Assembly (NCBI GenBank): GCA_008534395.1
Contig: SHMQ01000002.1
Span: 1,557-65,556 of the forward strand
Direction: 5' to 3'
DNA: 64,000 nucleotides
Origin: Candidatus Acidulodesulfobacterium acidiphilum
GTDB taxonomy: Bacteria; SZUA-79; Acidulodesulfobacterales; Acidulodesulfobacteraceae
Shown piece by piece: positions 1,259 to 59,548 of the stretch; the first letter of the stretch is position 1; each line of letters opens with the position of its first letter. A program made the translations under genes and the position numbers. A model generated the notes under the pieces. That model was not told the DNA's origin. It did not search any database and saw only the letters and a list, made by a program, of their open reading frames with translations.

Positions 1259-2011
1259 CTATGATTTTTTTGACTTGCAAGTATATTTTATATACCAAGC
1301 TTTACATCCCACGGTAAACAAAGGAATAAATGCGCTTATTCCGTAAACCAAAGCGCTTTTTACCATAAGGTCGAAAAAAGACGGCCTTATTAATTTATAA
1401 AACAACAAAGAGTAATAAACCCTTTTCTGCGGCAAACTTCTGTCTATGAATTTTGCCCAAGAAAAAAAAGTAACGAAATAATGCCCTATCGAGACAAAGC
1501 CGGATAATTTATAAAGCAGATAAAAAACAACTATTGAAAAACCGCCTATAAGCCCTATCATAACCGTTCTTCCCGTTAGAAGGGATAATATAGCTATTTT
1601 GGTTATTCTTCCCGTATAAAGGCTTGCAAGGGTCAGGCAAAGCATTAAATAAGCTATAAGCGGAAGAAGCGCAACCGATATTAAAAGAACCTGCTTAAAT
1701 AACCCTATCGGATGTCCGGTAAAAAAATATACGTAATCAGGTATTATAAAGGCAAGCAGAGGAAATAAGAGTAAAGTAAAAAGCAGTTCAAAAGAACCGT
1801 GTTTCATTCCTACGTTCATATACTCAAGCCTGTCTTTATAAGTAAATCTGTCTGTTTGCAATTTAACGCCCTCTAATTCTATAGCTCTCCATTTTTGCAC
1901 TTGGTCTATAACTTCCATAAATGTTAGAACTTTTTTCTTTTTTTCGGGCATCATAACGCCCGGAGTGCCTGAGCCTTGATTAAACATACCATCGAAATCA
2001 TCATTATTCAT
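1259..2011 (-). CDS. polytopic membrane protein, unknown function
   Basis: ORF track gives 1259..2032. The ATG at 2011 (MNNDDFDG) has a GGGGG SD and overlaps the iscB stop as ATGA. Several long hydrophobic segments. Confidence 0.6.
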   Translation of the reverse strand: MNNDDFDGMFNQGSGTPGVMMPEKKKKVLTFMEVIDQVQKWRAIELEGVKLQTDRFTYKDRLEYMNVGMKHGSFELLFTLLLFPLLAFIIPDYVYFFTGHPIGLFKQVLLISVALLPLIAYLMLCLTLASLYTGRITKIAILSLLTGRTVMIGLIGGFSIVVFYLLYKLSGFVSIGHYFVTFFSWAKFIDRSLPQKRVYYSLLFYKLIRPSFFDLMVKSALVYGISAFIPLFTVGCKAWYIKYTCKSKKS

Positions 2012-3249
2012 AGCTCGGATACCCCCATACAAGGGAGGAGAGCTATCCTCCTTGTTTTAAAAGTTTCAATCAACCTTAATTTTATATATTTAACCGAAGC
2101 GTTGATTTTTTCTCCGGTCAAAAGCCTTAAATCAAAATAGCCTGAACTTCTTAAGCTGTAAATAAAGCACTCTATCTTGCCGTATAATACCTTATCAAAC
2201 CTGTGGAAACCAAAAGCCTGTTTAATGGTATTAACCTTTCTTTTACCGCCTTTAAGCAGGTTAGCCTTAAATAAAGAGCGGTTACACTTGCGGACGTATT
2301 TAATGAAATAGTTATTGTCCGTCCTTTCCTGTCCGCTCCCGCCTGCTATGCAAAAGGCGTCGTTAGCGTGGCTCTTTTCGAGTTTTAACGCTATCCTTGA
2401 GGACTTGGTAAGGTAGCCGTAAGTAATGCTAACGGCGTTGCCTAACTCCCGCAGCTTATTAACTATCTTCCAGCGCAGGATAGACATAATAGTTTCAGCT
2501 TTAAAGGCTTTATGTTTCTTGACTTTAAGCTCTATCTTGCCTTTATGATACGCCTTATGGCAACTTTCGCATAATGTTATAAGGTTATCCGGTCTATCCC
2601 CGCCTGTCTGACGGCTTTCGATGTGGTGAACGTTTAATACCTTATCCTTGCTCTTGCCGTTACAAGCTTGGCATTTATGACCGTCCCTGTAAAGAACGTA
2701 TTCCCTTACGTTCCAAAAGTCCTTTTGATCGCCGTTCTGATAGTCCGTTCCCGTTATATCCGGATTCTTAATTTTCTGGATATCGAAAACAGCGGCTTCG
2801 ACGGTAATCTCCGATACAGGCAATATAGACTTAACAAAATCTACCGCTTTAACATGCTCGTTAAGCCTGTGTTCTACGCTCGGAGCGAGCCAACCGGCTT
2901 TAATACCACGGTTTAAGAAACGAGCCTTGCGATACCATAACCTATTGCGTCTCGTCCTGCGGTATTGCCTTTTCTCCGATAAGAGCTTTTGTATGTCGGT
3001 TCGTAATTCTACTTCGGAGCGAAAAAGCTCTTTATCGCTTGATACCGCCGATAATCCGACGTGCTTATAGCCGGTATCGACGCCTAATTTGACGTCTTGA
3101 ACCTGATTTTCACAATCAAAGTTAAGCTGAATTGTAAAAGGCGTTCTTTTAACCACTTTAGCCCTGCCTTGCTTTAAAAGTTTTCTTGCTTTAGCCGCTT
3201 TGCACGGCATTAACGGTTTACCGTCAATACTTAAAACATAGACTAACAT
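2008..3249 (-). CDS. iscB: IscB RNA-guided nuclease (OMEGA system, Cas9-ancestor family), copy 1
   Basis: 413 aa. PLMP motif (DGKPLMPC). RuvC-I GVDTGYKHVG. Arg-rich bridge RQYRRTRRNRLWYRKARF. RuvC-II ITVEAAVFD. HNH insert CQAC..HHIESRQTGGDRPDNLITLCESCH. RuvC-III SHANDAF. Confidence 0.9.
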   Translation of the reverse strand: MLVYVLSIDGKPLMPCKAAKARKLLKQGRAKVVKRTPFTIQLNFDCENQVQDVKLGVDTGYKHVGLSAVSSDKELFRSEVELRTDIQKLLSEKRQYRRTRRNRLWYRKARFLNRGIKAGWLAPSVEHRLNEHVKAVDFVKSILPVSEITVEAAVFDIQKIKNPDITGTDYQNGDQKDFWNVREYVLYRDGHKCQACNGKSKDKVLNVHHIESRQTGGDRPDNLITLCESCHKAYHKGKIELKVKKHKAFKAETIMSILRWKIVNKLRELGNAVSITYGYLTKSSRIALKLEKSHANDAFCIAGGSGQERTDNNYFIKYVRKCNRSLFKANLLKGGKRKVNTIKQAFGFHRFDKVLYGKIECFIYSLRSSGYFDLRLLTGEKINASVKYIKLRLIETFKTRRIALLPCMGVSEL

Positions 3250-3521
3250 AATCGTTTTTAAAACCTCCTGTTAGTTGAAGTTAGATACGCATCGGGAATG
3301 TTATTCAAGGTTTTTAAGTCTGTCACACTATCCATTACCCTCTCAGGATTGTTTAATAACAGACCACAGTTGCTACGGACTTGCGTTTTACGGGTCAATT
3401 CCCGATATCCGTAGGTGTGTGCCTTATAGGTTCTCTTGAATAACTGCTGATTAAACATAATTTAATCTCCCTTATCAACCGGCTTTTGCAAGCCTGCGGA
3501 TTTATCCGCGGGTGGTTGACT
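3250..3521 (-). ncRNA. omega-RNA-like scaffold upstream of iscB copy 1 (left end of element at about 3521)
   Basis: Locally GC-richer region directly 5' of iscB. Shares nucleotide blocks with the region upstream of iscB copy 2: ACCACAGTTGCTACGGAC, ATCCGTAGGTGTGT, GGATTGTT, TCAACC...GGTTGACT closing stem, and an internal hairpin CCTGCGGATTTATCCGCGGG. The 66-aa ORF here is probably spurious. Confidence 0.7.
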
Positions 3522-11990: not shown

Positions 11991-12641
11991 TCAAACAACT
12001 GCTATATCTTTCGTAATGTATATCCTATTCCTTCCATTTTCTTTTGCTAAATAGACGTTATTATCCGCTTCTTTTAGTATTTCCTCTTTTGATTTACCGC
12101 TGTCAAAAAAACCCACGCCCATTGAGCAGGTTATTTTCGGTAAATCCGGTATTCTTATCTTTTCTACGGCGTCTTTTAATTTCTTTGTTAAAAACCTTGC
12201 CTCCTGTAATGAGTTCCTTATATGATTAGACGACACCAAAACAAATTCTTCGCCACCATATCTGAAAAATACATCGCTGTTTTTCCTTATATTTTTATTT
12301 ATAGTCTGCGCAAATATTTTAAGCACTTTATCTCCCGCCTCATGTCCATATGTATCGTTAAATTTCTTGAAATGATCTATATCGAAAAAAACTACAAAAA
12401 AAGGCTCGTTGCTAACTTGAGATTCTTTATAAACTTCTTCTAAATATTTATCGAATGTTCTTCTGTTATTCGCTCCGGTCAAGTGGTCTTTTTCCGCCGT
12501 ATCTTTTAATCTTGCAATTTTTTTCTCAGTCTTACTGAATTCTTTTTTTATATTTATAGCGAAGTTATAAACATCATACGAGATAAAAAAATTAAAACCC
12601 GACAATAATACAAAAATTAAAGAATATACGCCGAAATCCAT
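11991..12641 (-). CDS. GGDEF diguanylate cyclase with N-terminal membrane anchor
   Basis: 216 aa. RYGGEEF active-site motif, FDIDHFKKFNDTYGH, GRNR. Confidence 0.85.
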   Translation of the reverse strand: MDFGVYSLIFVLLSGFNFFISYDVYNFAINIKKEFSKTEKKIARLKDTAEKDHLTGANNRRTFDKYLEEVYKESQVSNEPFFVVFFDIDHFKKFNDTYGHEAGDKVLKIFAQTINKNIRKNSDVFFRYGGEEFVLVSSNHIRNSLQEARFLTKKLKDAVEKIRIPDLPKITCSMGVGFFDSGKSKEEILKEADNNVYLAKENGRNRIYITKDIAVV

Positions 12642-23647: not shown

Positions 23648-24334
23648 TTAAATAACATTAGAAATTTGTCCAAATCCAAGTCCCATTTTATATCCTAAAA
23701 ATTCAGGCAAGCGATAATTTGATATAAAAGATAAATACATAACAGGCAAAATTTTGTCTTTATATTTAATATTTTTAAAAACGAATTGATTATTTTGATT
23801 TTGAAAATAAATTTCTATTTTATCTAACAAATCAAATGGCAATTCGCTATTTAAATATTCTTTTGCTTGAAAAATAACGCTGTCTATTATTCTGCGCTTA
23901 AGATATTTTATAAAATCGGTTTTATCGCTTTTTTGGGAAACGTTAAACAATATCTTATATTCGGTATTATTAACTCCCAGAACGAATGGCGTTCTGCTCT
24001 TATAAAATACCATTTCCTTTTTATCTGCAAACGATAGGTAATTGTCGTAACTTACATCTACCTTATTGATTTTTTCGCCGTAACAAACAAAATTTCCTGA
24101 ATTTAATTTATTGGCTAAATCGCCTATAACATCTATAGACTCTTTATCTGATTTTGCAAATGTGATTTCAAAAATATTTCGATAAGGTTTAGAATAAATA
24201 ACAGGCGATAGACCCTTACCATGATACATAACAAAATCTTTATCTTTTTCATCTGCGATAGAACCAATAAAATTTCTGATATCTCTTGAATCAAAACCGG
24301 ATAAATTATTTGATAACGTAACTTTAATTTTCAT
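23648..24334 (-). CDS. cas6: Cas6-family (Csf5-like) crRNA endoribonuclease
   Basis: 228 aa. C-terminal glycine-rich loop GYKMGLGFGQ. Starts 22 nt after the last CRISPR repeat and has an AGGAGG SD. Confidence 0.65.
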   Translation of the reverse strand: MKIKVTLSNNLSGFDSRDIRNFIGSIADEKDKDFVMYHGKGLSPVIYSKPYRNIFEITFAKSDKESIDVIGDLANKLNSGNFVCYGEKINKVDVSYDNYLSFADKKEMVFYKSRTPFVLGVNNTEYKILFNVSQKSDKTDFIKYLKRRIIDSVIFQAKEYLNSELPFDLLDKIEIYFQNQNNQFVFKNIKYKDKILPVMYLSFISNYRLPEFLGYKMGLGFGQISNVI

Positions 24335-24356: not shown

Positions 24357-25247
24357 ATTTTAACCTCACATATGTTAAACTCATACTACGATACAAAATG
24401 GTATTCTAATCCAACCTATTACTTTTAACCCCACATATGTTAAACTTATACGCGCAAGGCACGCAGGGAACGCAGCTTGTAAATTCCCTCTTTTAACCTC
24501 ACATATATTAAACTCATACCTATTTAAATAATCCCTTATAGAACGTCTGATAGACTTTTAACCTCACATATATTAAACTCATACAGAGATGCATCCTTGT
24601 CTCATATAGTTGATGGAGAATTCTTTTAACCTCACATATGTTAAACTCATACGAGAATTTTCGTCTCAAATTATTCCTGAAGAACCCGACTTTTAACCTC
24701 ACATATATTAAACTCATACTCTCGAAAATCGACACGCTCTTTTAGTCGGTGTCAGCTTTTAACCCCACATATGTTAAACTTATACCGGTTCTTCTAATGT
24801 ATGAAACCGGCGCCCGTATCGCTTTTAACCCCACATATATTAAACTCATACTCCGCCCAAACCGATGCCGAAAAATTTTTTATGACCTTTTAACCTCACA
24901 TATATTAAACTCATACACAAGTCATCTTATAAATTGTAATTTCAGCTAATCCCTTTTAACCCCACATATGTTAAACTCATACGTTACAAGGACGATATTA
25001 AATTTCCGGCGATAACTACTTTTAACCTCACATATGTTAAACTTATAGTAAACGCTATCCGTTTCCATTATCAAGCCCTTACAAACCTTTTAACCCCACA
25101 TATGTTAAACTTATACCAAGATTTTTTATCGACTTTACTTTGAATATCTTAACTTTTAACCCCACATATGTTAAACTTATACTTGTAGTACCTGTAGCAA
25201 GTTCGGCGTTCGACATTCTTTTAACCCCACATATGTTAAACTTATAC
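24357..25247 (-). CRISPR. CRISPR array: 14 repeats of 30 nt, 13 spacers of 35-38 nt
   Basis: Plus-strand repeat is CTTTTAACC[T/C]CACATAT[G/A]TTAAACT[C/T]ATAC. Repeat starts: 24357, 24422, 24490, 24555, 24623, 24690, 24756, 24822, 24887, 24953, 25019, 25087, 25153, 25218. Strand inferred from three things: co-orientation with the cas genes, identical repeats at the 25.2-kb end, and the GT...AAAAG form of the minus-strand repeat. Confidence 0.95.
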
Positions 25248-25352
25248 CCAAATTTTACCAAATGAAATCAAATAACTGCCGACCAAATCATCTTTTTTCG
25301 TCTGTCGCACTTGAGTAATGCAAAAATATCAGAAGAGCGACAGACAATCAAA

Positions 25353-26411
25353 TTATTCCTGAGCATCATCATCGGCAGATGTTTTAAAATATTTTTCTAT
25401 ATTTATGTTTTCTGCGGATATATTATCAAGCCATTTGTCCGCCTCCGTAATAGCCTTCCGTTGTTCGCTTGTATATTGCGGTTTCACGTTTACGTTAAAC
25501 GTATATTCATCGTCAGACCGGGACTGAAGAAAAGGATTGCCGTAATCTCCGTCTATGAACATATCGTAATTGATTACTCCCCAGCTTTTTTGGGTAGAAC
25601 CTACCCTCGCCGCAGCAAAAATCTCAAGCGTTTTTAGAAGTAAACCATATTCATATTCTTCAATTAGGTATCTGTCAGGCAATTGCATAATCGAGCTATG
25701 CAAAGTTATGCCCGGGACGATGTACTCTTTGCTTATCAACATTTGTATGGAAGTCTTGTCATCTTCTTTATCTACTTTTATCTGTTCCTGATAGGCTTGT
25801 AATTCCTCTAATGTAAATACTTTCGTTGCAGTTACGGAAACATTTCTTAAATCGTCCATATGCGCTATGTTCATTTCTTGTATATACGACGGTTTTTTAA
25901 TATCAAAATTTATCGTCCTATGATCAACTTGTTTTTCAATTATATCAGTAGTAGGTATAAAGTTATTAATGGCTATTTTGCCAGAAATGATAAGTCCTGT
26001 TCCAAATACAGATATTACGGGATTCAACTTTCTTATTTCATTTAAATCTTTTGCATTTCTTTTCGTTTGCTTTTTATCTTTATTCTTATCGGCGTCGACG
26101 TCGTTGTCACTCTCGCTTTTATTGTCTTTATTTTTTTTCTTGTTTTTTTTCTGGTTTACGCCGCCTCCATTAGACATCAAAGAAAAATCGGCGGGCGTAA
26201 GCTTTATGCCCTTGGATAGGGCTTTCTCCAACAAAAGCTCAGTCATAATCCTGCGCAATTTTCCGTTTACTCCGTTTGCAGGCAGATAACCTACCTCGTA
26301 AAGAGTGTTCCCAATACACACAACTAATTTTTTGATGTAAATGTTGCCTTTGTCGGCACTATCGATAATGCCTACCGGTGTTTTAGTGACTGCCCTAATG
26401 TCAATTCTCAT
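25353..26411 (-). CDS. csf2: Csf2 (type IV Cas7-like RAMP) with a lysine/aspartate-rich insertion
   Basis: 352 aa. LPANGVNGKLRR and NPVISVFGTG RAMP-like motifs. Lies between dinG and the array. Confidence 0.65.
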   Translation of the reverse strand: MRIDIRAVTKTPVGIIDSADKGNIYIKKLVVCIGNTLYEVGYLPANGVNGKLRRIMTELLLEKALSKGIKLTPADFSLMSNGGGVNQKKNKKKNKDNKSESDNDVDADKNKDKKQTKRNAKDLNEIRKLNPVISVFGTGLIISGKIAINNFIPTTDIIEKQVDHRTINFDIKKPSYIQEMNIAHMDDLRNVSVTATKVFTLEELQAYQEQIKVDKEDDKTSIQMLISKEYIVPGITLHSSIMQLPDRYLIEEYEYGLLLKTLEIFAAARVGSTQKSWGVINYDMFIDGDYGNPFLQSRSDDEYTFNVNVKPQYTSEQRKAITEADKWLDNISAENINIEKYFKTSADDDAQE

Positions 26412-26442: not shown

Positions 26443-28215
26443 TTAGATTAATTTGCCTATGTTTTTAAAAATTCTATTTAATCTGGCTTTGATTCTTTCG
26501 TCGTTTATTCTTGCGTCAAGTATGTATATATCGCCTTTATCGTCAGGTCTTCTCTGAAGCCTTCCGAGACTTTGGCGGGTTATAAACAGCATGTCGTTAT
26601 AAACGGTATTCCAGTAATATCCGTCATTGAAAGCTTTCTTGTCTTGCATGTCTTTGTCGTTGATCGGGGGAAATAAAAGTTTTGTTATATATAACTTTTC
26701 AAGTTCGTCTCCGGGCAAATCGATGCCCGTTGCATAAGTTCTCGTTCCTATCAATATTCCGCCCTCAAGTTTAAATTTATTAATAGTTTGGGCTTGCGTC
26801 ATCGTATAGTCAGCTTTAATGATGTTTGTATTTGGCAAAAGTTTTATTAATGCAGAATGTAGCGCCTTAACTTCCGCATAACTTCCGGCTATTACCAACG
26901 AATTTTTGTTTTCAAACGTTTTATTTATGTAACTGGCTATGCCGTCAACCCATTCCGCATCCGGCGTCCCGTCGTCAGACATATTTTTATTTTTCTTTAC
27001 AAGATAATCAGTGTGTATCTTGATATTATCCGTAGGAAATAGTCTTGGTTCGCTTTTAATTATTACTTTATCTTTTAGTCCGCTAAGACCAAGTTTTTTA
27101 ATTATATAATCGCCGTTATCCATTTCTATGCTTTGAGAAAATTCTTTTTTATCGGCAGGCGGCGGGACAGTAAAAAGAGTTCCCGATACGCCGACAAATC
27201 CAGATAAACTTTTAAAAAAATTATATAAACCCGATTGAACGCTTTGCGACTGAAAATGGACAGTCGGATAACCCTTAGCAGGCGAATAATACAAAGAAAT
27301 ATTTTCTTCGCTATTAACTATGGTGTTAAGTTCTGTATACTCCTGTAAAAAAATCTTTGCGTATCTGTCGGTTTTTAGTTCTTTAATTAATTTCGTTAAT
27401 TTTTTTCGAGACGACGCAAATTTAGTTAAATCGTCCAGATAATCTTTAAATAAGCGCTTGTCCGTTACATACGAGTCGATTTTATTTTCGTCCTTATATT
27501 TTTTAAGTAATACAGACGATTCTTTATAGATTTTACCGAGATATGTTTTTGCCGTTCTGTCAATTTTGCTTTTTCCTATTATTCTTTTTAGCGAAGTTGT
27601 AAATCGTGAAACAGAAAAACTCGAAGTAGAAATTAATTTCTGAGCTTCGTACATTTTATCCACTTCGTCGGACAATATGTAATATTCCGATAAATCGACG
27701 TTTTTATTGTATCTAAGCATTATAAGAAAAACATGATTGGTGATTGATACATCATATTCAGATACGCTGTCCAAATCTTGCCTGTTGTCTGCATGATAGA
27801 TATTTGATACTACTAATTTGTCGTCGTCGTTTAAAAGGCAATTCCTGTACAACTCTTCAAACGTTATATTTTTATTTAAAGTTTTAGCGTATTCAATTAC
27901 TTTATCCGGATACGTAAAATAAGAATAAAACTCGTCGTCTATTTTGTTTAAATCTAAATAATTTTCCGCTCCGATTACTATGCCTACTTTCAAATTAGGG
28001 AATCTTTCCTTGAAATCTAAAAATAGCTTGTCGGCTAAAGAATTGGTAAAAGTAGATATTATAACCTTCCTGTCTTTAAGAAGCTCCACTGCGATATGAG
28101 GCAATAAATAACTTGATTTGCCGAATCCGGTTGATAATTCATGCAAATGAATAAATTTTCTCCTTGCATTTTCTACTGCTATTTTTAAAATTTCCGTCTG
28201 CTTTTTGCTTAACAT
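26443..28215 (-). CDS. dinG: Csf4/DinG-family (XPD-like) helicase
   Basis: 590 aa. STGFGKSS Walker A, SDEVDKMY (DEAH-type box), ATGIDLPG, LGRLQRRPDDKGDIYILD (motif VI). Confidence 0.85.
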   Translation of the reverse strand: MLSKKQTEILKIAVENARRKFIHLHELSTGFGKSSYLLPHIAVELLKDRKVIISTFTNSLADKLFLDFKERFPNLKVGIVIGAENYLDLNKIDDEFYSYFTYPDKVIEYAKTLNKNITFEELYRNCLLNDDDKLVVSNIYHADNRQDLDSVSEYDVSITNHVFLIMLRYNKNVDLSEYYILSDEVDKMYEAQKLISTSSFSVSRFTTSLKRIIGKSKIDRTAKTYLGKIYKESSVLLKKYKDENKIDSYVTDKRLFKDYLDDLTKFASSRKKLTKLIKELKTDRYAKIFLQEYTELNTIVNSEENISLYYSPAKGYPTVHFQSQSVQSGLYNFFKSLSGFVGVSGTLFTVPPPADKKEFSQSIEMDNGDYIIKKLGLSGLKDKVIIKSEPRLFPTDNIKIHTDYLVKKNKNMSDDGTPDAEWVDGIASYINKTFENKNSLVIAGSYAEVKALHSALIKLLPNTNIIKADYTMTQAQTINKFKLEGGILIGTRTYATGIDLPGDELEKLYITKLLFPPINDKDMQDKKAFNDGYYWNTVYNDMLFITRQSLGRLQRRPDDKGDIYILDARINDERIKARLNRIFKNIGKLI

Positions 28216-28225
28216 TTCATCCCCC

Positions 28226-29668
28226 TTAATTGAATGGATAAATAATTTTTAGTAAATTAAGAATATCGTGCGTGTATTTAGCCTTAAAACCGATATATTT
28301 GTTTTTGGAATATAAATAATCCGTTTTGTCTTCAGAATTATCCAGTTCCTCTACCGCTTTTAGAAACATTTCGGTATCTATCGTCATAACGCCGTATTGC
28401 TTGTTTGCTATTTGAAACATTGCATTACTGACATTGACGCTTGACTTGAAAACAAGATGTGCGCCGTTGGAATCATTTTTTATAGTTATAAGAAACGGCG
28501 GCGTTTTATCTTTAATATTTTTGTAAAATTGAAGTTTTGTTTCCCTAATTTTATTTTTGATTAAGTTGTCGAATTTTTCTTTTGTCATACCTGCCGGACG
28601 CTGAGTATTTTCTTTCACCGCTTTATCTAAATTTCCGCCGCCTATATAGATTTTTTCATTGTTAGAAATAAACAAATTTGCCGTTTTATTATAATTTTCG
28701 CTGTGTTCGATTGCCTTGCAATAATCGCAGACATAATCTCCCGCTTCTACGAATCCAAAATCCGTAAAAGTCTTCGGAAATATTTTTTCTTTTTCTTTTG
28801 TATCTCTTTTAATTCCGTCACTCCCGCCGCACATTATACAAATATGTTTTTTTTCAGATGTTTCAGGAACAAACGGCTTTTTTTCGTACGTGAAAGAAAA
28901 CATATCCTTTGTGTTTTTGTACATAAATTCCGTTGAACTCATAAAATCCATTGTGGTAATACTTTTAAATCCTTTATCCCAAGAAACGTCTTTTTCTTCC
29001 GTGTAATACATAGGCGGCATATAACAAGCAACCTTATTTTCTTTTAGCCAATAAGGCGGATAAAATCTATAAAACATAACTCTATGGGTATTTACCGAAA
29101 ATTTAGAACATGGAAGAGGTTTAGAAACAGTAGTTGCATTTAATAAAATACCTTTGTTTTCATCGATTACTTCTACTTCAGGATCATCGTCCGCAAATCC
29201 AAAACCTATTTTTGCTTTTTTTCCAAGATATTTAACTTCTTTTAATAAATCCAATATTTTGTCTTTATGTCCCGTTACATAAAAATAAATTTTCGGCAAA
29301 ACCAATATTGGAAAAATTAAATTATAGGCCTTATACTGACCTTTATCGGTAATAAATTTTTTATCGGTAAAAAACCCATGCTTTTTATATTCTTCGTGTT
29401 TCATAGACTTAAACATCCTGTATTCACTTTTGTAGATAGGGCTATCTTTGTCTGCGTACCATATAGAACCTGATATAATTCCGTTTTTTATTTCGAGAAA
29501 CTTGCCTATCTCGTCCAAAAAATCTTCCGTTTTAATAAAATCCGTAATATTCTTTTCCTCTTTGTATTTTTTAAAAAAGACAGAAAGCAAAATAGAATCT
29601 ATCGTCGTAAATCTATTTTGAAATATTGCAGGACTTTCAAGATTAAAAGTTATTTTTAAATTTTCCAC
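28226..29668 (-). CDS. candidate Cas5(Csf3)-Csf1(Cas8-like) fusion protein
   Basis: 480 aa with a GTG start after an AAGGAGAA SD. N-terminus MENLKITFNLESPAIF...IDSILLS plus YLGKKAKIGFGF loop are RAMP/Cas5-like. Central CIMCGG...CDYC zinc ribbon as in Csf1. Confidence 0.55.
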   Translation of the reverse strand: MENLKITFNLESPAIFQNRFTTIDSILLSVFFKKYKEEKNITDFIKTEDFLDEIGKFLEIKNGIISGSIWYADKDSPIYKSEYRMFKSMKHEEYKKHGFFTDKKFITDKGQYKAYNLIFPILVLPKIYFYVTGHKDKILDLLKEVKYLGKKAKIGFGFADDDPEVEVIDENKGILLNATTVSKPLPCSKFSVNTHRVMFYRFYPPYWLKENKVACYMPPMYYTEEKDVSWDKGFKSITTMDFMSSTEFMYKNTKDMFSFTYEKKPFVPETSEKKHICIMCGGSDGIKRDTKEKEKIFPKTFTDFGFVEAGDYVCDYCKAIEHSENYNKTANLFISNNEKIYIGGGNLDKAVKENTQRPAGMTKEKFDNLIKNKIRETKLQFYKNIKDKTPPFLITIKNDSNGAHLVFKSSVNVSNAMFQIANKQYGVMTIDTEMFLKAVEELDNSEDKTDYLYSKNKYIGFKAKYTHDILNLLKIIYPFN

Positions 29669-29931: not shown

Positions 29932-30618
29932 TTATTTTTTAAAAAAACCAAAGAATCTGCAAAATTTTGACATATTGATATTTTCGAGAAATTCTTTGGC
30001 TTCGGTATTGTTATTTAAAAAAAAGTCCTTATTTTTCTTATAGTCCATAACTTTTAACTTATGATTATATTTTTCTAACATCCAGCCGCCGGAATCGTCC
30101 CTTGATGCCGTTTCGGAAACTATGTCTATATCTACGGATAGCCCTTTTTTTCTTATGGTCTTTTTAATATCGTCGAATATGCCTTTTAATTCGTTATTCA
30201 TGCGATAATCGGTTACCGTTACGCCGTGGAGCGTAGTTTCGCCGGTTAAATAGAAAAAAGCCTTGCATATAGCCGTCCGGTGATTGCCGTCTCCGCCTAT
30301 ATAAAGTTCTCCGCCGTCGATACTCTGATAATACATAGATGGGATTTTCTTTTTGGTCTGCCTGTAATAATCGGGATTAGTTTTAAAAAAATTAAGATTA
30401 AGCGCCATTCTTTTGCCTGTTTCCAGAAATTCCAACCATGTTAAACCCGCATAATCCGGATGTTGAGTTCCTTTAACCCTAAATATGTTAACCGAAGCAC
30501 TATCCTGCCAGAATGATTCCTTTACGAAACGCATATCTGGAGCAGTCCACTTGTCTATCTGGCGGTTTAGTATTTCAGGATTAACATCTTTAATTTCTTT
30601 TAATAAATCATTGACCAT
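29932..30618 (-). CDS. ParB/Srx-fold (ParB-like nuclease domain) protein
   Basis: 228 aa. YIGGDGNHRTAICKA resembles the DGxHR core of ParB-like nuclease domains. Confidence 0.45.
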   Translation of the reverse strand: MVNDLLKEIKDVNPEILNRQIDKWTAPDMRFVKESFWQDSASVNIFRVKGTQHPDYAGLTWLEFLETGKRMALNLNFFKTNPDYYRQTKKKIPSMYYQSIDGGELYIGGDGNHRTAICKAFFYLTGETTLHGVTVTDYRMNNELKGIFDDIKKTIRKKGLSVDIDIVSETASRDDSGGWMLEKYNHKLKVMDYKKNKDFFLNNNTEAKEFLENINMSKFCRFFGFFKK

Positions 30619-34473: not shown

Positions 34474-35304
34474 TTAAAACAAATTTAACTGTTCTCCTTT
34501 ATTTTTTATTCTTCTTTTAACTGTTTTTTGCTTATTTTTCTTAAAATTACAGTTACTTGCACTTCTTAAAGCGCCGCCGACGCCCGCGGTTAAAGCAAGC
34601 GATTTCTTAAGTGCATCCGTAACGCCAAATCCGCCGTCTTCTAAAATTCTGCAAAACTCGTCCATTATAGGAATTCCGTCAGGGGTAACCATATTTACGA
34701 TATTAGGAACGTTTTCCATAGCCAAAGCTTTAGGCTTCATCTCGGATATAAACCTTGCATATTCAAAAACCAAACTATTTCTGGGATCCAATACGTTGCG
34801 TTTTCCAAGAGTCGAAAATCCTTGACACGGTGGAGAGCCGACCATTAAATCCAACTCGCCGGGTTTAATTCCTAATTCGCTCATAATCCTATCCGACGAC
34901 AATTTCCTTACGTCTCCGACGAATATATATTTAACCCCTTCAAACCACGCGGGGCATACTTTATGACGATTATTGCCGGAAACTTCCATATGAACGATGC
35001 CGTCTTCCGTTTTAGTCATCATTTTTTGAAAATACTTTTCGGCGCGTTCCCTGTCGGATTCTTCGACAAATATCATTTTAAGCGGATACGCCCCTAAATT
35101 TATAGAATATGTATGAACGGCCGCTATGTCCCATTCTGCCGCCGCTATTACGTTAATACCCGCATTGATTAAACCTAAGCTAAATCCGCCAATGCCCGAA
35201 AAGAAATCCATCGCTATCAAACGTTTTTCGGGTAAACAAGTTTTTGGAATAATTAAACCTGACGAATTTCTATAAAAATTATCTTCGTTAAAAAGTAAAT
35301 TCAT
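34474..35304 (-). CDS. DNA cytosine-5 methyltransferase, N-terminal catalytic part only (motifs I-VII)
   Basis: 276 aa. Motif I DFFSGIGGFSLG, motif IV GSPPCQGFS, motif VI MENVPNI. I could not find motif VIII (QxRxR), a TRD, or motifs IX/X. Confidence 0.7.
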   Translation of the reverse strand: MNLLFNEDNFYRNSSGLIIPKTCLPEKRLIAMDFFSGIGGFSLGLINAGINVIAAAEWDIAAVHTYSINLGAYPLKMIFVEESDRERAEKYFQKMMTKTEDGIVHMEVSGNNRHKVCPAWFEGVKYIFVGDVRKLSSDRIMSELGIKPGELDLMVGSPPCQGFSTLGKRNVLDPRNSLVFEYARFISEMKPKALAMENVPNIVNMVTPDGIPIMDEFCRILEDGGFGVTDALKKSLALTAGVGGALRSASNCNFKKNKQKTVKRRIKNKGEQLNLF

Positions 35305-35343
35305 ATTAATTTACGCCTCCGCAAAGAGCGGTATCTGCCCCTG

Positions 35344-36159
35344 CTAGTTTAAATCGTAATTAGCCCAGACGGTTTCCGTCCGTTCAGGACAGTTATTTTT
35401 ATTCCTATACCTCAAGCTATTAGCAAGACAATTAAAATCCTGCCTGTAAAAGCCTGAAAGCCTTTTGTTATAAATATCGTTATCGTAGCCGCTTAAAAGC
35501 CATTTACCTTTAATACTTAAAAGAATATCGATAAGGTCGTTGTGGTCTTTATCCGTCATCTCGAACATATAACCGCCGCTCTTGCGGGAACTTGCCACGT
35601 AAGGCGGGTCGAGATAGAAAAACGTATCGGGGCGGTCCCAGTTAGCGATTAATTTTCTGAAATCCAAATTATCAATATAAACATCCGAAAGTCTTTTGTG
35701 TATTAAATTTAATTTATCAATGCTATTTCTAATGTATTTTGGTATATTCACGTCTATCGAAAACCGCCAACCGGCTCCTTTCTTGGCGTTAGGATGTTCG
35801 CCGTTTATCGTTGATTTAATCAGATAATAAAACCTTACCGCCCGCTCTGCTTTGTTAAGCTTATCCGTCCGCATATCACGATATTCGTAATAGCATTCGC
35901 GGGAATACGGCAATAAACTTATTTTCTCTTGAAATTTCTTAAACAGCTTTCCGTCCGCTATAACCTTAAAAAAATTATAAAGTTCGCCGTCTATATCGTT
36001 ATAAACTTCGATTTCGGACGGCTCTTTATTTATCAGTATCGCGCCGGACCCGCCGAAAACTTCGACGTAAGTTTTATGTTTCGGAAATAAAGGCATTAAC
36101 TTATCCGCCATAAAAAATTTGCCGCCGAAGTAGCCGAATGGAGTTAATTTTGTTTTCAT
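35344..36159 (-). CDS. dam: Dam-family (D12 class) N6-adenine DNA methyltransferase
   Basis: 271 aa. FGYFGGK...VEVFGGSGA and FYLDPPY motifs. Confidence 0.8.
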   Translation of the reverse strand: MKTKLTPFGYFGGKFFMADKLMPLFPKHKTYVEVFGGSGAILINKEPSEIEVYNDIDGELYNFFKVIADGKLFKKFQEKISLLPYSRECYYEYRDMRTDKLNKAERAVRFYYLIKSTINGEHPNAKKGAGWRFSIDVNIPKYIRNSIDKLNLIHKRLSDVYIDNLDFRKLIANWDRPDTFFYLDPPYVASSRKSGGYMFEMTDKDHNDLIDILLSIKGKWLLSGYDNDIYNKRLSGFYRQDFNCLANSLRYRNKNNCPERTETVWANYDLN

Positions 36160-38556: not shown

Positions 38557-38729
38557 AAATTAATCTTTTATATTTTTATATTATTTTTTGCAAGATAATC
38601 TTTATTTTTGCATAATTATTTCCGATTATTAAATAGAGAGATTTTATATCGCTTTCCTTTGATTTTTGCTTGACAATAAAGGCTATAAAAAATACAATAA
38701 ATATCAATGATTTCACGGGGGAAATAAAT

Positions 38730-39635
38730 ATGGAAGAAGTCGGTTTAATAGAACCGGTCGTATCGGTATCGTCGGTATCTGGTCCTTATTCTTTTAATAT
38801 ATTACCCGAATCAATTTCCGAACAGCCATGCGAAATTATTCCTTATAAGCGCAAACCTAATCTAAACGAGCTATTAAATAAAATTATTAACGAAGATGCG
38901 TTAATCGGATTAAAAAATATTCCGGACGAATCAGTCGATGTCGTTATTACCGATCCGCCTTACGGCATTGCCAAAAAAAATTCGTTTAAAGATAAAAGCC
39001 ACGGGACATTCAAGGCTTTAGATTCCGAATGGGATATTTTTCCTTCGAAAAATCATTATATCAAGTTTACCGAAAACTGGATTAAAGAATGTTGTAGAAT
39101 ATTAAAGCCGACAGGCTCTATCGCGGTTTGGGGAAGCAGGATAAGCATTTTCGACGTTCAACCCGTTCTCTCGCAATTTTTCCCGAAATTTCTGGATATG
39201 CTTACGTGGATAAAAAGGGATTCTCCGCCGAATATGACCCGAAGAGGAATGGCTCCGTCCACGGAATTTTGCCTTATATTTACCAAAGCAGAAAAAGGCT
39301 GGACTTTTAATCACGACGATATTAAAAGGTATAACGACGGCAAACAAATGAGAAATTACGTAGATATTCAAAGGACGATGCCTGCCGAGGAAAGAACCGG
39401 ACACCCTACTCAAAAGAAAATCGAAACGCAACTTCTTTTAGTAGAAATGTTAAGCAATAAAAACGAGATAGTATTAGATCCATTTACGGGAAGCGGAACG
39501 TTGCCTGTTGCCTGTCTTAAAACCGACAGAAATTTTATCGGATTTGAATTAAACAAGGAATATTATGCCGTCGCTAAAAATAGAATAAAAAAACTTATAA
39601 ATGTTAACGATAAACACAAAAGAAACCGATATTGA
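38730..39635 (+). CDS. beta-class N6A/N4C DNA methyltransferase (type II R-M)
   Basis: VITDPPYGI (motif IV) precedes VLDPFTGSGT (motif I). Start set at the ATG at 38730 after a GGGGGA SD. TTGACA-17-TACAAT promoter at 38670..38698. Confidence 0.8.
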   Translation: MEEVGLIEPVVSVSSVSGPYSFNILPESISEQPCEIIPYKRKPNLNELLNKIINEDALIGLKNIPDESVDVVITDPPYGIAKKNSFKDKSHGTFKALDSEWDIFPSKNHYIKFTENWIKECCRILKPTGSIAVWGSRISIFDVQPVLSQFFPKFLDMLTWIKRDSPPNMTRRGMAPSTEFCLIFTKAEKGWTFNHDDIKRYNDGKQMRNYVDIQRTMPAEERTGHPTQKKIETQLLLVEMLSNKNEIVLDPFTGSGTLPVACLKTDRNFIGFELNKEYYAVAKNRIKKLINVNDKHKRNRY

Positions 39636-46055: not shown

Positions 46056-48614
46056 TTATGAAAATTCAACAAAGGTATCTATAACTTTATCTAAATCTTT
46101 TTTAAGTTCATTTTTAATCTGTTCAATTAAATTATATTTTTTTGCCAACTCTCTTTGCCTACTTAAATCAAATTCCCCTTTCTTATCAACTGGTATTTTA
46201 ATACTTATTTTTTCAATATGGGTTTTTTTAAGTCTCTTATTTCCTTCTCCGACAGAATAATTAGGGAGTTCATTATCTAATAAATATTTTAGGAATTCAT
46301 AATCTAATTTATCTTTAAACTGTTCTTTAATGGTTAATAATCCACAATGGGTAGTTAAACTAAATTTTCCATTTCTATAAAATACTCTACCTGCATATCC
46401 GTCAATAGTCCAAGTTAAACCTTCTTTATCGTAATCATAACTGTCTATTTTTGCTATTTCTCCATTATTTTTAGTCTGACCTGAATAAACCGGATATTTT
46501 CCTTGATGTGTTGAAAAGTATTTATGGTTATATTTTGAAATACCAAGATTTATATTAAATACATCTGTTATAGCTACTTTTTTTAATTTAGTTTCTTTTC
46601 TTTCTTCAAGTAAGTTTATTTCTTGTTTGAATTCTTTTAAATTATCTGAGGTTTCATCAAGCATAGAAGAAAAATCAAGGATATTTACTTTATTTTCTTT
46701 TTCAACAATACCTAATTTTATCTTTTCTTTTTTAGACCAAAATCTATCAATTACCCAATTATCTTCGGGTTTGAAATTTTTAATTGGTAGTGTTTTACAT
46801 CTTAAAGAATTTGTTTTAAAGGCATTTTTAGCTCCTTTAAATTGATTAAATAAATCAACTGCTTCGTTCAAATCATTTTTCTCTGGATTTTCAAATCTGT
46901 AAATATCTAAACTTTCTCCAATATTACTCACTAAATATAAAAACACAGGAGTGTCTTGAATATCTGAAGAACTATTTTTTTTTGTAATTGCTAATATATA
47001 AGTTTTTTTAATGTTTGTAAAAAAAGTTTTTGTCGGCAAAGAGATAATGGCATCAATAACACATTCATCGGTAATAAATTTTCTTAAATTCTTATCGTTT
47101 ATTCTATTTAAAATCCCATCAGGGATAATAACAAATGCTTTTCCATTTTTTTTTAATGCCCTTATTATCCACTCTATAAATAGTCCTTCTACACCCATAG
47201 CATTTATTTTATAATAGCTCTCTAATTTGCTTTTTACTATTTCTTCTTTTAGGTTGCTACTACCAGTAGTTACATATGGAGGATTTGTTAAAATCCAATC
47301 ATATTTTTCTTTAACATCATCAGCTAATGTTCCAAGTATAGAATTAGTCTTCAAAATAAAACTTTTATTGAATAAATCTGAAAATTCTTTAGTTAAATTA
47401 GGATGTTTTTTAATTAAATCGGAAAAATAAATAAGCATATTTGCTTTTGCCAAGATAATTGTTTTTTGTTCTTCTGTGTCAAACCCCTTGTCGAAGCCAT
47501 AAATTTCTATTTTTGCTTCTATTTTATTATTTATAACTTTATAAAATCTATCAATATTATTAGCAATGATTTCCAATGGAAATTTTCCAACGCCGCAAGC
47601 AGGATCGCATATTTTATCACCTTCTTTTACATCTGTCATTCTAACTATTGCCTTAACAACTTTAAGAGGTGTAAAAAATTGCCCCCAATTTTTTTTACTT
47701 ATGCTCTGCTTCATAAAACTTTCAAATAATCTGCTTTTAAATTCATAATCAATATTCTCTAATTTCTTATAATCCCTAAATCTATATAGAACTTTTTTAA
47801 AAACAGTGCTATATCCTTCGACTGCTTTTTGGTCTTTACTTACAAATATTGTTCCGTTAATTATTGTCGTATGATCTATAGGATTTTCCTTAAATAATTC
47901 TTTTATTTTTGGTCTTATTATCTTCGCATATTGCTCTAAAACTTCTTCATCTGTATTTTTTTTGTACATATCAATTAAATCATAAAAACCAAACATGCCC
48001 TGTAACACACCTAAATCACTTAAATATTTAAAAATAAATAATTCAATAAAGGTATATAAACAGTTTTCAGGAGTAGCACCACTAACCATCCAAATATCTT
48101 GCCAGATTTGTTTTGCTAATTCAGTAGGATTAATAAGCTCAATTGATTTTAGAGTAGAATTGGTTTCGCTTATAGAGTTATTTATTTTATTAATTAACTC
48201 TATAATATCTTTATCTTTAGGGTTAAAAATATAATTTAAATCGTTATGATTTTCATCTTTAATAATCTCGCCATTTAAAGCATTAACCCATATAGTTTCT
48301 GTTGTATCTGTAATAATTAGAATTTTTGTTAATTTTTGTGCTACTTCTATTTCTTGTTTTAGTGCTTTTTGTTTTTGATTAATTGTTTTAAATTTAGAAG
48401 GTCTTTTGTTTTCAATTATTGCTATAACATTATCTCCTTCTGTAATAAGTCCATCAACTTTTTTCTTTTCAATTTTTTCCCCATAATCAATATTTTTGAT
48501 TATGCCGTTTTCTTTAAGCGATTTTATTGTGGTCGAACCGATATTATAAAAATTCCACCCCCCAATTTTTTCAGGGTTTTTAATTAGATCTCTTTGTAAT
48601 AATTCTTCGCTCAT
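46056..48614 (-). CDS. type IIG-like single-chain restriction-modification enzyme (nuclease + N6A methylase + TRD)
   Basis: 852 aa. N-terminal VDGLITEGDNVIAIIENKRP (PD-ExK-like). FFTPLKVV...DPACGVGKF (motif I). LTNPPY (motif IV). HsdS-like C-terminal TRD. Confidence 0.75.
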   Translation of the reverse strand: MSEELLQRDLIKNPEKIGGWNFYNIGSTTIKSLKENGIIKNIDYGEKIEKKKVDGLITEGDNVIAIIENKRPSKFKTINQKQKALKQEIEVAQKLTKILIITDTTETIWVNALNGEIIKDENHNDLNYIFNPKDKDIIELINKINNSISETNSTLKSIELINPTELAKQIWQDIWMVSGATPENCLYTFIELFIFKYLSDLGVLQGMFGFYDLIDMYKKNTDEEVLEQYAKIIRPKIKELFKENPIDHTTIINGTIFVSKDQKAVEGYSTVFKKVLYRFRDYKKLENIDYEFKSRLFESFMKQSISKKNWGQFFTPLKVVKAIVRMTDVKEGDKICDPACGVGKFPLEIIANNIDRFYKVINNKIEAKIEIYGFDKGFDTEEQKTIILAKANMLIYFSDLIKKHPNLTKEFSDLFNKSFILKTNSILGTLADDVKEKYDWILTNPPYVTTGSSNLKEEIVKSKLESYYKINAMGVEGLFIEWIIRALKKNGKAFVIIPDGILNRINDKNLRKFITDECVIDAIISLPTKTFFTNIKKTYILAITKKNSSSDIQDTPVFLYLVSNIGESLDIYRFENPEKNDLNEAVDLFNQFKGAKNAFKTNSLRCKTLPIKNFKPEDNWVIDRFWSKKEKIKLGIVEKENKVNILDFSSMLDETSDNLKEFKQEINLLEERKETKLKKVAITDVFNINLGISKYNHKYFSTHQGKYPVYSGQTKNNGEIAKIDSYDYDKEGLTWTIDGYAGRVFYRNGKFSLTTHCGLLTIKEQFKDKLDYEFLKYLLDNELPNYSVGEGNKRLKKTHIEKISIKIPVDKKGEFDLSRQRELAKKYNLIEQIKNELKKDLDKVIDTFVEFS

Positions 48615-54196: not shown

Positions 54197-55480
54197 CTAC
54201 CTATCAATAAATTGATAGGCTTCCTGCCTCATCGTATGGTTACTATATCCGATACTCTGAATACCCGTAAGAGCATACTCCAGAGGCGTTAATTCCGCCG
54301 TTCCCGGCGTATTTTTTAAGATTGTTAATCCTTCAAGGAAAAGGTTAATACTTGCATTTACATCTCTGTCGTGGACGGCTCCGCATTGCGGGCATATCCA
54401 GAACCTTTCGGATAACTTAAGGTCTTTATGGATATATCCGCAGTCCGGAGTAGAACAAGTTTTAGACGACGGATAAAACCTGTTAACCTTAAATACCTGT
54501 CTGCCGTACCAAGACGCTTTATATTCAAGCATATCGTTAAATTTACTCCACGATACGTCGGATATAGGCTTCGATAAATTACCGTTCTTAACCATTCCTT
54601 TGATATTTAAGTCCTCGAGAACGATAACTTGGCTATCGTTTACCGTTCTTGAAGACAATTTATGCAAAAAATCGTTGCGCTGATTAAATATATGTTCGTG
54701 CAATTTTGAAAGTTTATTTTTAAATTTAATATAATTCTTTGACGGAGTAGTCTTATCCTGTTTACTGCGTTTATGAACCTTTCTATCAAGTTGTCTTGAA
54801 AGCTTAATAAGGCGTTTTTGGGACTTAAGCAAATATTTCGGGTTAGGTATCTTAAAACTCTCTTTATTATCAAAGCTTGTGCCTGTAGTTATAATGGCAA
54901 AATCTTTTAAGCCTAAGTCTATGCCTGTTGATATACCTACCACTTTTTTAGGTATATACGGAGTAAAAGCAAACTTTTCTACCAGCATATTGACGTAATA
55001 CTTGCCGGACGTAGTTTTAGAAATACTAATAGACTTTACCGCTTCGTAAACTTTCCTATGAAATTTAACCTTTATAGCGGTTTTGAGTTTCGGTATATTG
55101 ATAAAACTGTCCTTTATCTCAAAGCTTTGCGGTATTACGATACTGCTATATACGCCTTTCTTTTTGAAATTGGGATAACCTGCCTGTTTCTTAAAGAATT
55201 TCTGAAAGGCATCGTCCAAATCCTTAAGGCTTGCTTGCAAGGATTGGGAGTTAGCTTCTTTAAGAAAAGAAAAGCCTTTTTTAAGCAAAGGCAATATTTT
55301 TTTAAATTCATAGTAGTTAAATTTAATATTATGAGTTTTATATAAATGCGTAGCTCTTTCAAGAAAGAAATTATATACGAACCGGTTATAGCTCATCTGC
55401 TCGTCGAGATAAGCTACCTGCTCGGCGTTAGGATATAACCGAAATCTATATACGTAAAATTTATTGTCTCTATCTTTCAT
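54197..55480 (-). CDS. tnpB: TnpB (IS200/IS605-family OrfB, RNA-guided nuclease)
   Basis: 427 aa. FRLYPNAEQ start. RuvC triad candidates GIDLGLKDF, VIVLEDLNIKGM, HDRDVNASINL. Zinc ribbon CSTPDCG...CPQCG. Confidence 0.85.
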   Translation of the reverse strand: MKDRDNKFYVYRFRLYPNAEQVAYLDEQMSYNRFVYNFFLERATHLYKTHNIKFNYYEFKKILPLLKKGFSFLKEANSQSLQASLKDLDDAFQKFFKKQAGYPNFKKKGVYSSIVIPQSFEIKDSFINIPKLKTAIKVKFHRKVYEAVKSISISKTTSGKYYVNMLVEKFAFTPYIPKKVVGISTGIDLGLKDFAIITTGTSFDNKESFKIPNPKYLLKSQKRLIKLSRQLDRKVHKRSKQDKTTPSKNYIKFKNKLSKLHEHIFNQRNDFLHKLSSRTVNDSQVIVLEDLNIKGMVKNGNLSKPISDVSWSKFNDMLEYKASWYGRQVFKVNRFYPSSKTCSTPDCGYIHKDLKLSERFWICPQCGAVHDRDVNASINLFLEGLTILKNTPGTAELTPLEYALTGIQSIGYSNHTMRQEAYQFIDR

Positions 55481-56066: not shown

Positions 56067-57152
56067 TCATCCTTTGATGTTAATTATGGGTATAAATTTA
56101 TCTACTACTTCTATATTTTTGCCATTCTGCGCATTTATAACATCTTCCAAATTTTTATAAGCGAATGGCGATTCGTCAAGCGTTTCTCTATCTACTTTAG
56201 CAAAAATTCCGCTCATTACGGATTTAAAATCATTTATATCTATCGTCTTTTTAGCCTTACCTCTGCTCATAACCCTGCCTGCTCCGTGAGATGCGGAATT
56301 AAGATAGTCGTTATTGCCGAGTCCTTTGACTATATAAACCCCGTCTCTCATATTTCCGGGGATTATCCCCATTTCGTCTTTTTCGGCGGATATCGCTCCT
56401 TTGCGATGCAATATGCCGTCCTGCGTAATAACAGCATGATTATGATTTTTATTAATAAAATCATACATAAAAACGCTGATATCGAGTTTTAATATATTTA
56501 ATACTATCTGCATTATTTTCTTTCTATTCTCCAAGGCAAACTCAAGGCAGTAGTTCATATCCTCTAAGTATGCCTGTCCTAATTCTGAATTTATATCGAA
56601 CATCCGCCCTTTTTTCATATAAAATTCGGCGACGGTATGCCCTGCGTTTCTGGACCCGGAGTGGACGGTTATTCCTATTTCGTTTTTATCATTAATGCCT
56701 ATTTCGATAAAATGGTTACCTCCGCCCAATGTCGCATATTGCATGTTTATCTTATTCCTTACCGTTTTAGTTAATTGCTTATCGCCGGATACGGACGTAA
56801 ACTCCTGTTTAATATAGCATGCCGGCTTGGACAGAGAATTAAATCCTACGGGAATTTGTTTATATATTTCGTTAAATACGTAATCCCTAAACTCATCATA
56901 ATCTTTATCTGTCTTATCTAATAAGACCTTAGTATTTATATTAGATACGCCGCAGCCTATATCGTAACCGACGAATGACGGCGATATTTGATTATCCAGC
57001 AAAGCAACCCCGCCGATAGGCATATCGTAACCGGCATGAACGTCTGGCATTATAGCAAACGATTTTAAACAGTCTAAACTTTCGATATTTTTTATTTGAT
57101 TATGCGCTTCCGACTCGATACTTTCTTTTGGAATACCGTAAAATGTCTGCAT
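56067..57152 (-). CDS. rtcB: RtcB-family RNA ligase (short form)
   Basis: 361 aa. DVHAGYDMPIGG, GGGNHFIE, HSGSRNAGH, SASHGAGR. Confidence 0.85.
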   Translation of the reverse strand: MQTFYGIPKESIESEAHNQIKNIESLDCLKSFAIMPDVHAGYDMPIGGVALLDNQISPSFVGYDIGCGVSNINTKVLLDKTDKDYDEFRDYVFNEIYKQIPVGFNSLSKPACYIKQEFTSVSGDKQLTKTVRNKINMQYATLGGGNHFIEIGINDKNEIGITVHSGSRNAGHTVAEFYMKKGRMFDINSELGQAYLEDMNYCLEFALENRKKIMQIVLNILKLDISVFMYDFINKNHNHAVITQDGILHRKGAISAEKDEMGIIPGNMRDGVYIVKGLGNNDYLNSASHGAGRVMSRGKAKKTIDINDFKSVMSGIFAKVDRETLDESPFAYKNLEDVINAQNGKNIEVVDKFIPIINIKG

Positions 57153-59269: not shown

Positions 59270-59548
59270 GTTTAAGACGAATACCCGCGGGTTTCGTCCT
59301 CTCCTGCCGGAGAGTAGGTTCTCTTCGGGATTGTTATTAACCGTTTTTAAGCCTGCCGCACTAAGAGTTTCCTCTTTGTTTAACGACAAACCACAGTTGC
59401 TACGGACTAAAGAAGTATCCGTAGGTGTGTCGGTTATCCGTCTTGTTAATAACTTCTGCATTTTTTTCATAATTAATGCCCCCTAATCAACCAGTTGCCC
59501 TTGTGCCTCACGACTCAAGCCCCGTCCGAAAGGGCGGGGTGATTGACT
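59270..59548 (-). ncRNA. omega-RNA-like scaffold of iscB copy 2
   Basis: Same conserved blocks as 3250..3521. The internal hairpin is replaced by CCCCGTCC-GAAA-GGGCGGGG, so the sequence differs but a hairpin is retained. Confidence 0.7.

Follow-up and report, generated by a model that had tools for sequence, protein, structure and literature searches.

A Csf3-Csf1 (Cas5-Cas8) fusion as the probable effector subunit of a type IV-E CRISPR-Cas locus on an F-type conjugative element

Can one polypeptide supply both the Cas5 and the Cas8 subunit of a type IV CRISPR-Cas (short palindromic repeats that are clustered and regularly interspaced, CRISPR, and the proteins associated with them, Cas) complex, and, if so, to which subtype does the encoding locus belong? 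The question is raised by an open reading frame (ORF) for 480 residues in a stretch of 64,000 nucleotides from contig SHMQ01000002.1 (assembly GCA_008534395.1, Candidatus Acidulodesulfobacterium acidiphilum), the whole of which is called the window here. The conclusion reached below, to which we assign a probability of about 0.9, is that the product of this ORF is a Csf3-Csf1 (Cas5-Cas8) fusion, a subunit of the type IV-E CRISPR-Cas system of an F-type conjugative, plasmid-like element.

It should be noted that a fusion of this kind has already been published as a mark of IV-E. Pinilla-Redondo et al. (NAR 2020, PMC7038947) described IV-E as a putative subtype and an outgroup of IV-A, in which DinG has diverged significantly and Csf1 is fused to Csf3, and which is known from Campylobacter and Bacteroides, partly on plasmid-like elements. 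The preliminary description of this DNA had linked a csf1/csf3 fusion to the rare subtype IV-E, and correctly so; the window protein is a well-supported further example.

Two subunits in one reading frame

The ORF, proposed earlier without a strand, is real. Its limits are exactly 28226-29668, and it is read from the minus strand; when the same interval is translated from the plus strand, it is riddled with stop codons. A good ribosome-binding site, AAGGAG, lies 7-8 nucleotides 5' of the GTG start codon, and only 10 nucleotides separate the TAA stop codon from the ATG of dinG, so that the two genes are tightly coupled. A scan of the fusion locus for promoters and terminators gave results no better than those for shuffled sequence. 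All of the motifs quoted earlier are present, with MENLKITFNLESPAIF at residues 1-16, IDSILLS at residues 23-29, CIMCGG at residues 277-282 and CDYC at residues 314-317. The gene and the parts of its product are as follows.

28226-29668, minus strand: csf3-csf1 (cas5-cas8) fusion gene, 480 residues
29012-29668, minus strand: Csf3/Cas5 (repeat-associated mysterious protein, RAMP) domain, residues 1-219
29324-29407, minus strand: predicted Cas5 "thumb" loop, residues ~88-115, including K113 (putative function)
29195-29230, minus strand: glycine-rich loop YLGKKAKIGFGF, residues 147-158
28868-29011, minus strand: connector of 48 residues between the Csf3 and Csf1 regions, residues 220-267
28229-28867, minus strand: Csf1 (Cas8-like large subunit) domain, residues 268-480
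28718-28840, minus strand: CxxC...CxxC zinc ribbon, C277, C280, C314 and C317

The resemblance of the protein to Csf3 and Csf1 is far beyond chance. The best PADLOC model is Csf3-Csf1_0_IVE (typeIV_Cas58; expectation value, E = 5e-62), with which residues 1-446 are collinear over profile positions 1-423 of 479. The generic PADLOC models divide the protein cleanly, Csf3_0_IV covering residues 1-219 (E = 2.7e-29) and Csf1_0_IV residues 268-443 (E = 2.6e-14), and the connector lies outside both. A profile built from 34 homologues and compared with all PDB sequences matched the Csf1 chain 8rc3_G (E = 6.6e-7, positions 273-448) and the Csf3 chains 7xfz_B (E = 6.6e-6) and 8rc3_F (E = 4.5e-4), all of type IV-A. 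The NCBIfam models TIGR03116 (cas5_csf3, residues 99-217) and TIGR03114 (cas8u_csf1, residues 389-443) matched weakly, below their equivalog cutoffs, and a Pfam scan of the fusion returned solely a sub-threshold primase zinc-ribbon match.

The AlphaFold2 model, computed from the alignment of the 34 homologues, is confident, with a mean predicted local distance difference test score (pLDDT) of 88.6 and a predicted template modelling (TM) score of 0.88. Its sole low-confidence or disordered stretch is the putative thumb at residues ~88-115 (pLDDT 48-69), and the connector, which includes a helix at residues 245-253, is modelled at pLDDT 91-96. The top three matches of a Foldseek comparison with the PDB were the type IV-A Csf3 chains 8rc3_F, 8rc2_F and 7xg1_B (E from 6.5e-11 to 1.1e-9, target-normalised TM score 0.65-0.72), followed at ranks 4-5 by the Csf1 chains 7xg1_A and 8rc3_G (E about 2-6e-4, TM score 0.51-0.55); below rank 5 there were weak, generic RAMP matches, gRAMP chains among them. 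Profiles and predicted fold agree, and therefore both halves are confirmed independently by sequence and fold, which bears out the earlier proposal of a Csf3-to-Csf1 fusion, domain by domain and against solved type IV-A subunits.

The comparison also refines the limits of the two halves. The RAMP/Cas5 identity proposed for residues 1 to about 165 holds, but that boundary does not, since homology to Csf3_0_IV reaches residue ~219. Likewise, about 160 further residues do follow the zinc ribbon, and they belong to the C-terminal domain of Csf1, given that stand-alone Csf1 proteins align with profile positions 259-483. The ribbon, likened earlier to that of Csf1, aligns with the CSHC...CWRC motif of the solved IV-A1 Csf1, and its four cysteines correspond to the N-terminal zinc finger of the Csf1 family. 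C277 is found in 34/34 family members, and C280, C314 and C317 are kept in 24/34. In the Csf3 half, the alignment pairs the glycine-rich loop, in which G149 is invariant and K151, G155 and G157 are at least 90% conserved, with IGGKRGVGFG, the corresponding loop of solved Csf3. K113, invariant in the 34 sequences, is paired with K117 of the Csf3 proteins from P. oleovorans and P. aeruginosa. In the Csf1 half, conservation is highest in the motif P391...H404, which brackets the place of the wedge residues S119-M121 of IV-A1. The clade to which the window protein belongs has ~20 extra residues around positions 345-385 and ~25-30 residues fewer near the C terminus than most relatives.

The locus, its relatives and subtype IV-E

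The fusion gene is the first of a series in the order fusion-dinG-csf2-array-cas6, all on the minus strand, the remaining members of which are listed here.

26443-28215, minus strand: dinG (csf4), helicase, 590 residues; Csf4_3_IVE, E = 4.8e-59; Helicase_C_2, E = 4.6e-20
25353-26411, minus strand: csf2 (cas7), backbone subunit, 352 residues; Csf2_0_IV, E = 2e-27; TIGR03115, E = 4e-10
25248-25352, minus strand: putative AT-rich CRISPR leader, between the csf2 stop codon and the first repeat
24357-25247, minus strand: CRISPR array, 14 repeats of 30 nucleotides (GTATAAGTTTAACATATGTGGGGTTAAAAG) and 13 spacers of 35-38 nucleotides
23648-24334, minus strand: cas6 of IV-E type, 228 residues; Cas6_1_IVE, E = 2.7e-33; Cas6b_C, E = 4.5e-5, below the curated cutoff

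Each of DinG, Cas6 and the fusion scores best against a IV-E profile, and therefore the locus belongs to IV-E; the alternative raised in the preliminary description, an independent fusion outside that subtype, thus finds no support. For DinG, the score against Csf4_3_IVE, the best of seven DinG models, is 198.8 bits, whereas the best DinG profiles of IV-A reach 147.6 and 106.7 bits. The N-terminal region of the protein contains a Walker A motif, GFGKS. A phmmer search of DinG against solved structures matched E. coli DinG and XPD and no CasDinG, which fits the published divergence of IV-E DinG (PMC7038947), and the protein appears, from its sequence, to belong to the IV-E lineage that diverged from IV-A CasDinG. 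The putative leader adjoins csf2 because the degenerate terminal repeat lies at the cas6 end of the array. The repeats of the array are polymorphic at three positions.

The locus thus contains the features of IV-E, that is, the Csf3-Csf1 fusion, a IV-E DinG, Csf2, and a Cas6 and CRISPR array of its own; the separate csf1 and csf3 genes of IV-A are replaced by the one ORF of 480 residues. When the half-profiles and phmmer were run on every ORF of 40 residues or more in the six frames of the 64-kb window, they matched only the fusion itself and no second Csf3- or Csf1-like sequence, so that the earlier statement that the locus has no separate cas5 stands. Type IV systems in general are carried by mobile elements and lack both an adaptation module (Cas1/Cas2) and an effector nuclease. 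The locus agrees with this in that it lies on a mobile element, and a Pfam scan found none of Cas1, Cas3 and effector nucleases among all window ORFs of at least 230 residues, the small ORFs of Cas2 size not all having been scanned.

The fused proteins form a family of their own. The 34 full-length homologues (454-523 residues, with the precomputed Pfam families PF27782 for Csf3 and PF27781 for Csf1) can be aligned over their whole length, the linker included, and C215, M217, P218, E224 and C277, on its two sides, are invariant. Exhaustive searching of 1.84 billion cluster representatives with a profile yielded 32 fused full-length representatives, the count of ~32 referring to clusters at 50% identity. 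Below this fused set there were hundreds of stand-alone Csf3 proteins (~205-260 residues), aligned with profile positions 1-215, and of stand-alone Csf1 proteins (~270-310 residues). Relatives of intermediate identity (30-39%) bridge the clades.

The sole PLSDB plasmid with a relative is pICON of Campylobacter concisus P2CDO4 (NZ_CP021643), the fusion protein of which (WP_107917359, 477 residues) is annotated as "hypothetical". The two loci share a Csf3-Csf1 chain of ~480 residues with Csf3 at the N terminus, a divergent DinG, Csf2 and a IV-E-type Cas6, as well as repeats of ~30 nucleotides with a period of 65-67 base pairs, plasmid carriage and the lack of adaptation genes; the pICON array has 22 repeats. 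They differ in that all four proteins have only 25-30% identity (fusion, 29%; Cas6, 30%, E = 9e-31; DinG, 28%, E = 2e-41; Csf2 versus the pICON RAMP protein, 25%, E = 2e-23). A search of the cas locus against plasmids at the DNA level gave no match, and phages gave none at the protein level. The same gene set recurs in the homologous loci L003, L004 and L007, together with related repeats and adjoining Rep and Tra genes. There are two CRISPR arrays in L003 (5455-6031 and 6922-7432), one on either side of cas6, and a single one in the window. The order of the genes is fluid in the family: in L004, cas6 seems to be located upstream of the fusion gene, and pICON has dinG inverted.

With the solved IV-A1 and IV-A3 complexes (PDB 8RC3, 8RC2 and 7XG1), the window locus shares both subunit folds, the zinc ribbon, the glycine-rich loop, the thumb lysine (K113 corresponding to K117) and the DinG helicase. 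The difference is that IV-A has two separate polypeptides, whereas the window has one chain with a connector of 48 residues. Fused effector subunits are also found in other class 1 systems, for example the type III-E gRAMP, in which Cas7 repeats are fused, and the Cas5-Cas6 fusion of type I-G. These share with the window protein the trend towards covalent joining of neighbouring subunits in the CRISPR RNA (crRNA) complex, but they involve other subunits in other types, and no homology links them to it beyond the RAMP fold.

Is the window protein, together with its close relatives (fusions 55-96% identical; L001-L003 and L007), a variant of IV-E that has not been described before? This is a tentative proposal, for which the odds seem to us to be rather against than in favour. 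Such a variant would be distinguished by a rearranged single-strand fusion-dinG-csf2-array-cas6 operon, sometimes with a second array, by a Csf1 half with a clade-specific helical insert and a shorter C terminus, by nearly unstructured repeats, and by its occurrence on F-type conjugative plasmids of uncultured, possibly Campylobacterota-related bacteria; the linkage of the Cas5 thumb to the Cas8 zinc finger might alter reading of the protospacer-adjacent motif (PAM) or recruitment of DinG in comparison with IV-A. The novelty that remains is modest and consists of a divergent clade, another gene order, and the clade-specific insertion and deletion in the Csf1 half.

The conjugative element, the spacers and rival explanations

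The window represents an F-type conjugative element, which carries TraG_N, TraH, TraC, TraV, TrbI, TraK, TraE and DsbC, and F-type transfer genes flank the IV-E locus. The element codes, in addition, for a replisome organiser and a primase, for methyltransferases and for an S24 repressor, and the nearest TraC proteins are those of Campylobacterota plasmids (39% identity). Further features of the element are the following.

2008-3520 and 58088-59547, both minus strand: two IscB-like OMEGA systems, ORFs of 413 and 460 residues with RRXRR and HNH domains
54197-55480, minus strand: TnpB/Cas12f1-like protein (OrfB_IS605 and TNB domains)
11991-12641, minus strand: stand-alone GGDEF diguanylate-cyclase-like protein, E = 7.5e-42
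29932-30618, minus strand: ORF of 228 residues, directly upstream of the cas operon
46056-48614, minus strand: further element gene
34474-36159, minus strand: further element gene
38670-39635, plus strand: further element gene
56067-57152, minus strand: further element gene

Each of the IscB-like ORFs is preceded by a HEARO/omega-RNA (Rfam RF02033; 113.8 and 123 bits, with a gathering score of 83), and TnpB-like genes adjoin the IV-E loci in L004 and L007 too. The gene of the GGDEF protein sits within the operon for conjugative transfer, with TraH on one side and a signal peptidase on the other, and the protein's weak resemblance to the Cas10 palm domain is expected for GGDEF folds. The last four intervals of the list account for a fused N6-methylase/specificity protein, either type IIG or type I-like, for methyltransferases of the C5 and Dam-like kinds, for an N4/N6 methylase and for the RNA ligase RtcB. 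The ORF upstream of the cas operon has no family match in Pfam, NCBIfam or PADLOC, and it was rejected as a conserved partner of the locus for lack of similarity to the L004 gene upstream of the fusion, which looks Cas6-like. It contains a GGDGNHRT motif, and a ParB/Srx-like nuclease is a candidate reading.

None of the 13 spacers has a self-target within the window at up to 7 mismatches, and none has a match in PLSDB. The sole meaningful match among the homologous loci compared was that of spacer 12 (24452-24489), which is identical at 31/36 positions to a spacer at 7149-7184 of L003, a related plasmid contig from a metagenome-assembled genome, the register, immediately behind the repeat, being the same in both; the matching sequence is the spacer of another array and no protospacer. 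The conserved 26-mer of the shared spacer and its 20-mer core matched nothing in the collections metagenome_contigs and viral_contigs. The likeness may reflect either the acquisition of the same protospacer site from variant targets or an old shared spacer.

How firmly can the ORF be read as a IV-E fusion subunit? A convergent fusion of Csf3 and Csf1 in a locus outside IV-E, for example a derivative of IV-A, might be suspected from the low identity to the C. concisus fusion and from the different gene order there, but gene order varies within the family itself, as L004 illustrates, and the relatives of intermediate identity bridge the clades. Moreover, the IV-E fusion profile is collinear across both halves and the junction, DinG and Cas6 rank IV-E profiles first, and the alignment of the homologues runs unbroken across the linker, either side of which has invariant residues, so that we regard convergence as very improbable. 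It is still less credible that adjacent csf3 and csf1 genes have been merged by a mistake in sequencing or assembly or by the loss of a stop codon. The two genes are indeed separate in IV-A operons, and database searches returned half-length relatives (P0006 and P0054-P0056); however, P0006, the one that was examined, is cut by the end of its contig and was therefore rejected as an unfused close relative, 32 independent clusters from many samples contain full-length fused proteins, and the 48-residue connector is conserved and confidently modelled.

A rival of another kind accepts the locus as genuine IV-E and assigns to it a role other than plasmid exclusion, either gene regulation or plasmid maintenance (a natural form of CRISPR interference, CRISPRi) or that of inactive cargo. 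It can point to the spacers, for none of which a target was found, to a type IV-A1 system that is reported to regulate a chromosomal gene (PMC11551745), and to motif II of DinG, which reads DEVD at the position of DEAH. However, none of the genes is disrupted and their coupling is tight, the 13 spacers of the array all differ, the likeness of spacer 12 to the spacer of a related plasmid suggests that the array is still shaped by targeting, and type IV spacers are generally biased towards plasmids (PMC7038947). We therefore consider a role other than plasmid exclusion unlikely, though clearly less so than convergence or artefact.

Several observations weigh against the reading of the ORF as a IV-E fusion subunit that acts in the manner known from IV-A. 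In the window, the genes lie on a single strand with the array between csf2 and cas6, whereas pICON has dinG on the opposite strand, followed by fusion-cas6-csf2-array. In structural alignments, the Csf3 and Csf1 proteins of IV-A are just 10-19% identical to the fusion. In 10/34 family members, other residues, mostly S, T or A, stand in place of C280, C314 and C317, and therefore zinc-dependent PAM reading is not universal in the fused family. For the repeat of the window, hardly any hairpin is predicted (-1.5 kcal/mol, z = -0.16), unlike the IV-E repeat of C. concisus (-5.1 kcal/mol, z = -2.15), a point that bears on its recognition by Cas6. Protospacers were found for 0/13 spacers in the collections searched. 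Finally, the literature searched contained no experiment on, and no solved structure of, any IV-E complex, so that every step of the mechanism considered below is transferred from IV-A.

A transferred mechanism and its meaning

In the solved IV-A1 and IV-A3 complexes, Cas5 caps the 5' end of the crRNA and forms, together with the zinc-finger N-terminal domain of Cas8, a two-part PAM interface, in which the Cas8 domain reads the PAM and K117 of the IV-A1 Cas5 clamps the target-strand phosphate next to it; Cas8 and Cas7 guide the displaced strand to DinG, and the stoichiometry is 1 Cas5 : 1 Cas8 : 5-6 Cas7 : 1 Cas6 (PMC11519345). By analogy, it is probable that the fusion protein works in the same way. 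Cas6 would cut the pre-crRNA, the Csf3 half would cap the 5' handle, which is derived from the 3' end of the repeat, and several copies of Csf2 would line the spacer. The zinc-ribbon N-terminal domain of Csf1 and the wedge region (P391...H404) may form, with the Csf3 thumb (K113), a two-part clamp that would read the PAM and start the formation of the R-loop. The displaced strand would then be passed to DinG, resulting in nuclease-free interference with competing plasmids by a blockade of transcription or replication.

One fusion protein per crRNA would thus combine capping of the 5' handle, PAM recognition and strand separation, and the fusion would fix covalently the 1:1 pair of Cas5 and Cas8 that constitutes the two-part PAM interface of IV-A.

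The finding leaves current understanding unchanged. What it contributes is a type IV-E locus, complete and intact, on a conjugative element of uncultured bacteria, and the family of fused Cas5-Cas8 proteins, with ~32 clusters, is larger than the "few examples" first reported. For the design of compact type IV CRISPRi tools, a naturally fused Cas5-Cas8 protein has a modest practical interest, and this natural fusion lets one ask how a two-part PAM interface tolerates the covalent linkage of its parts.

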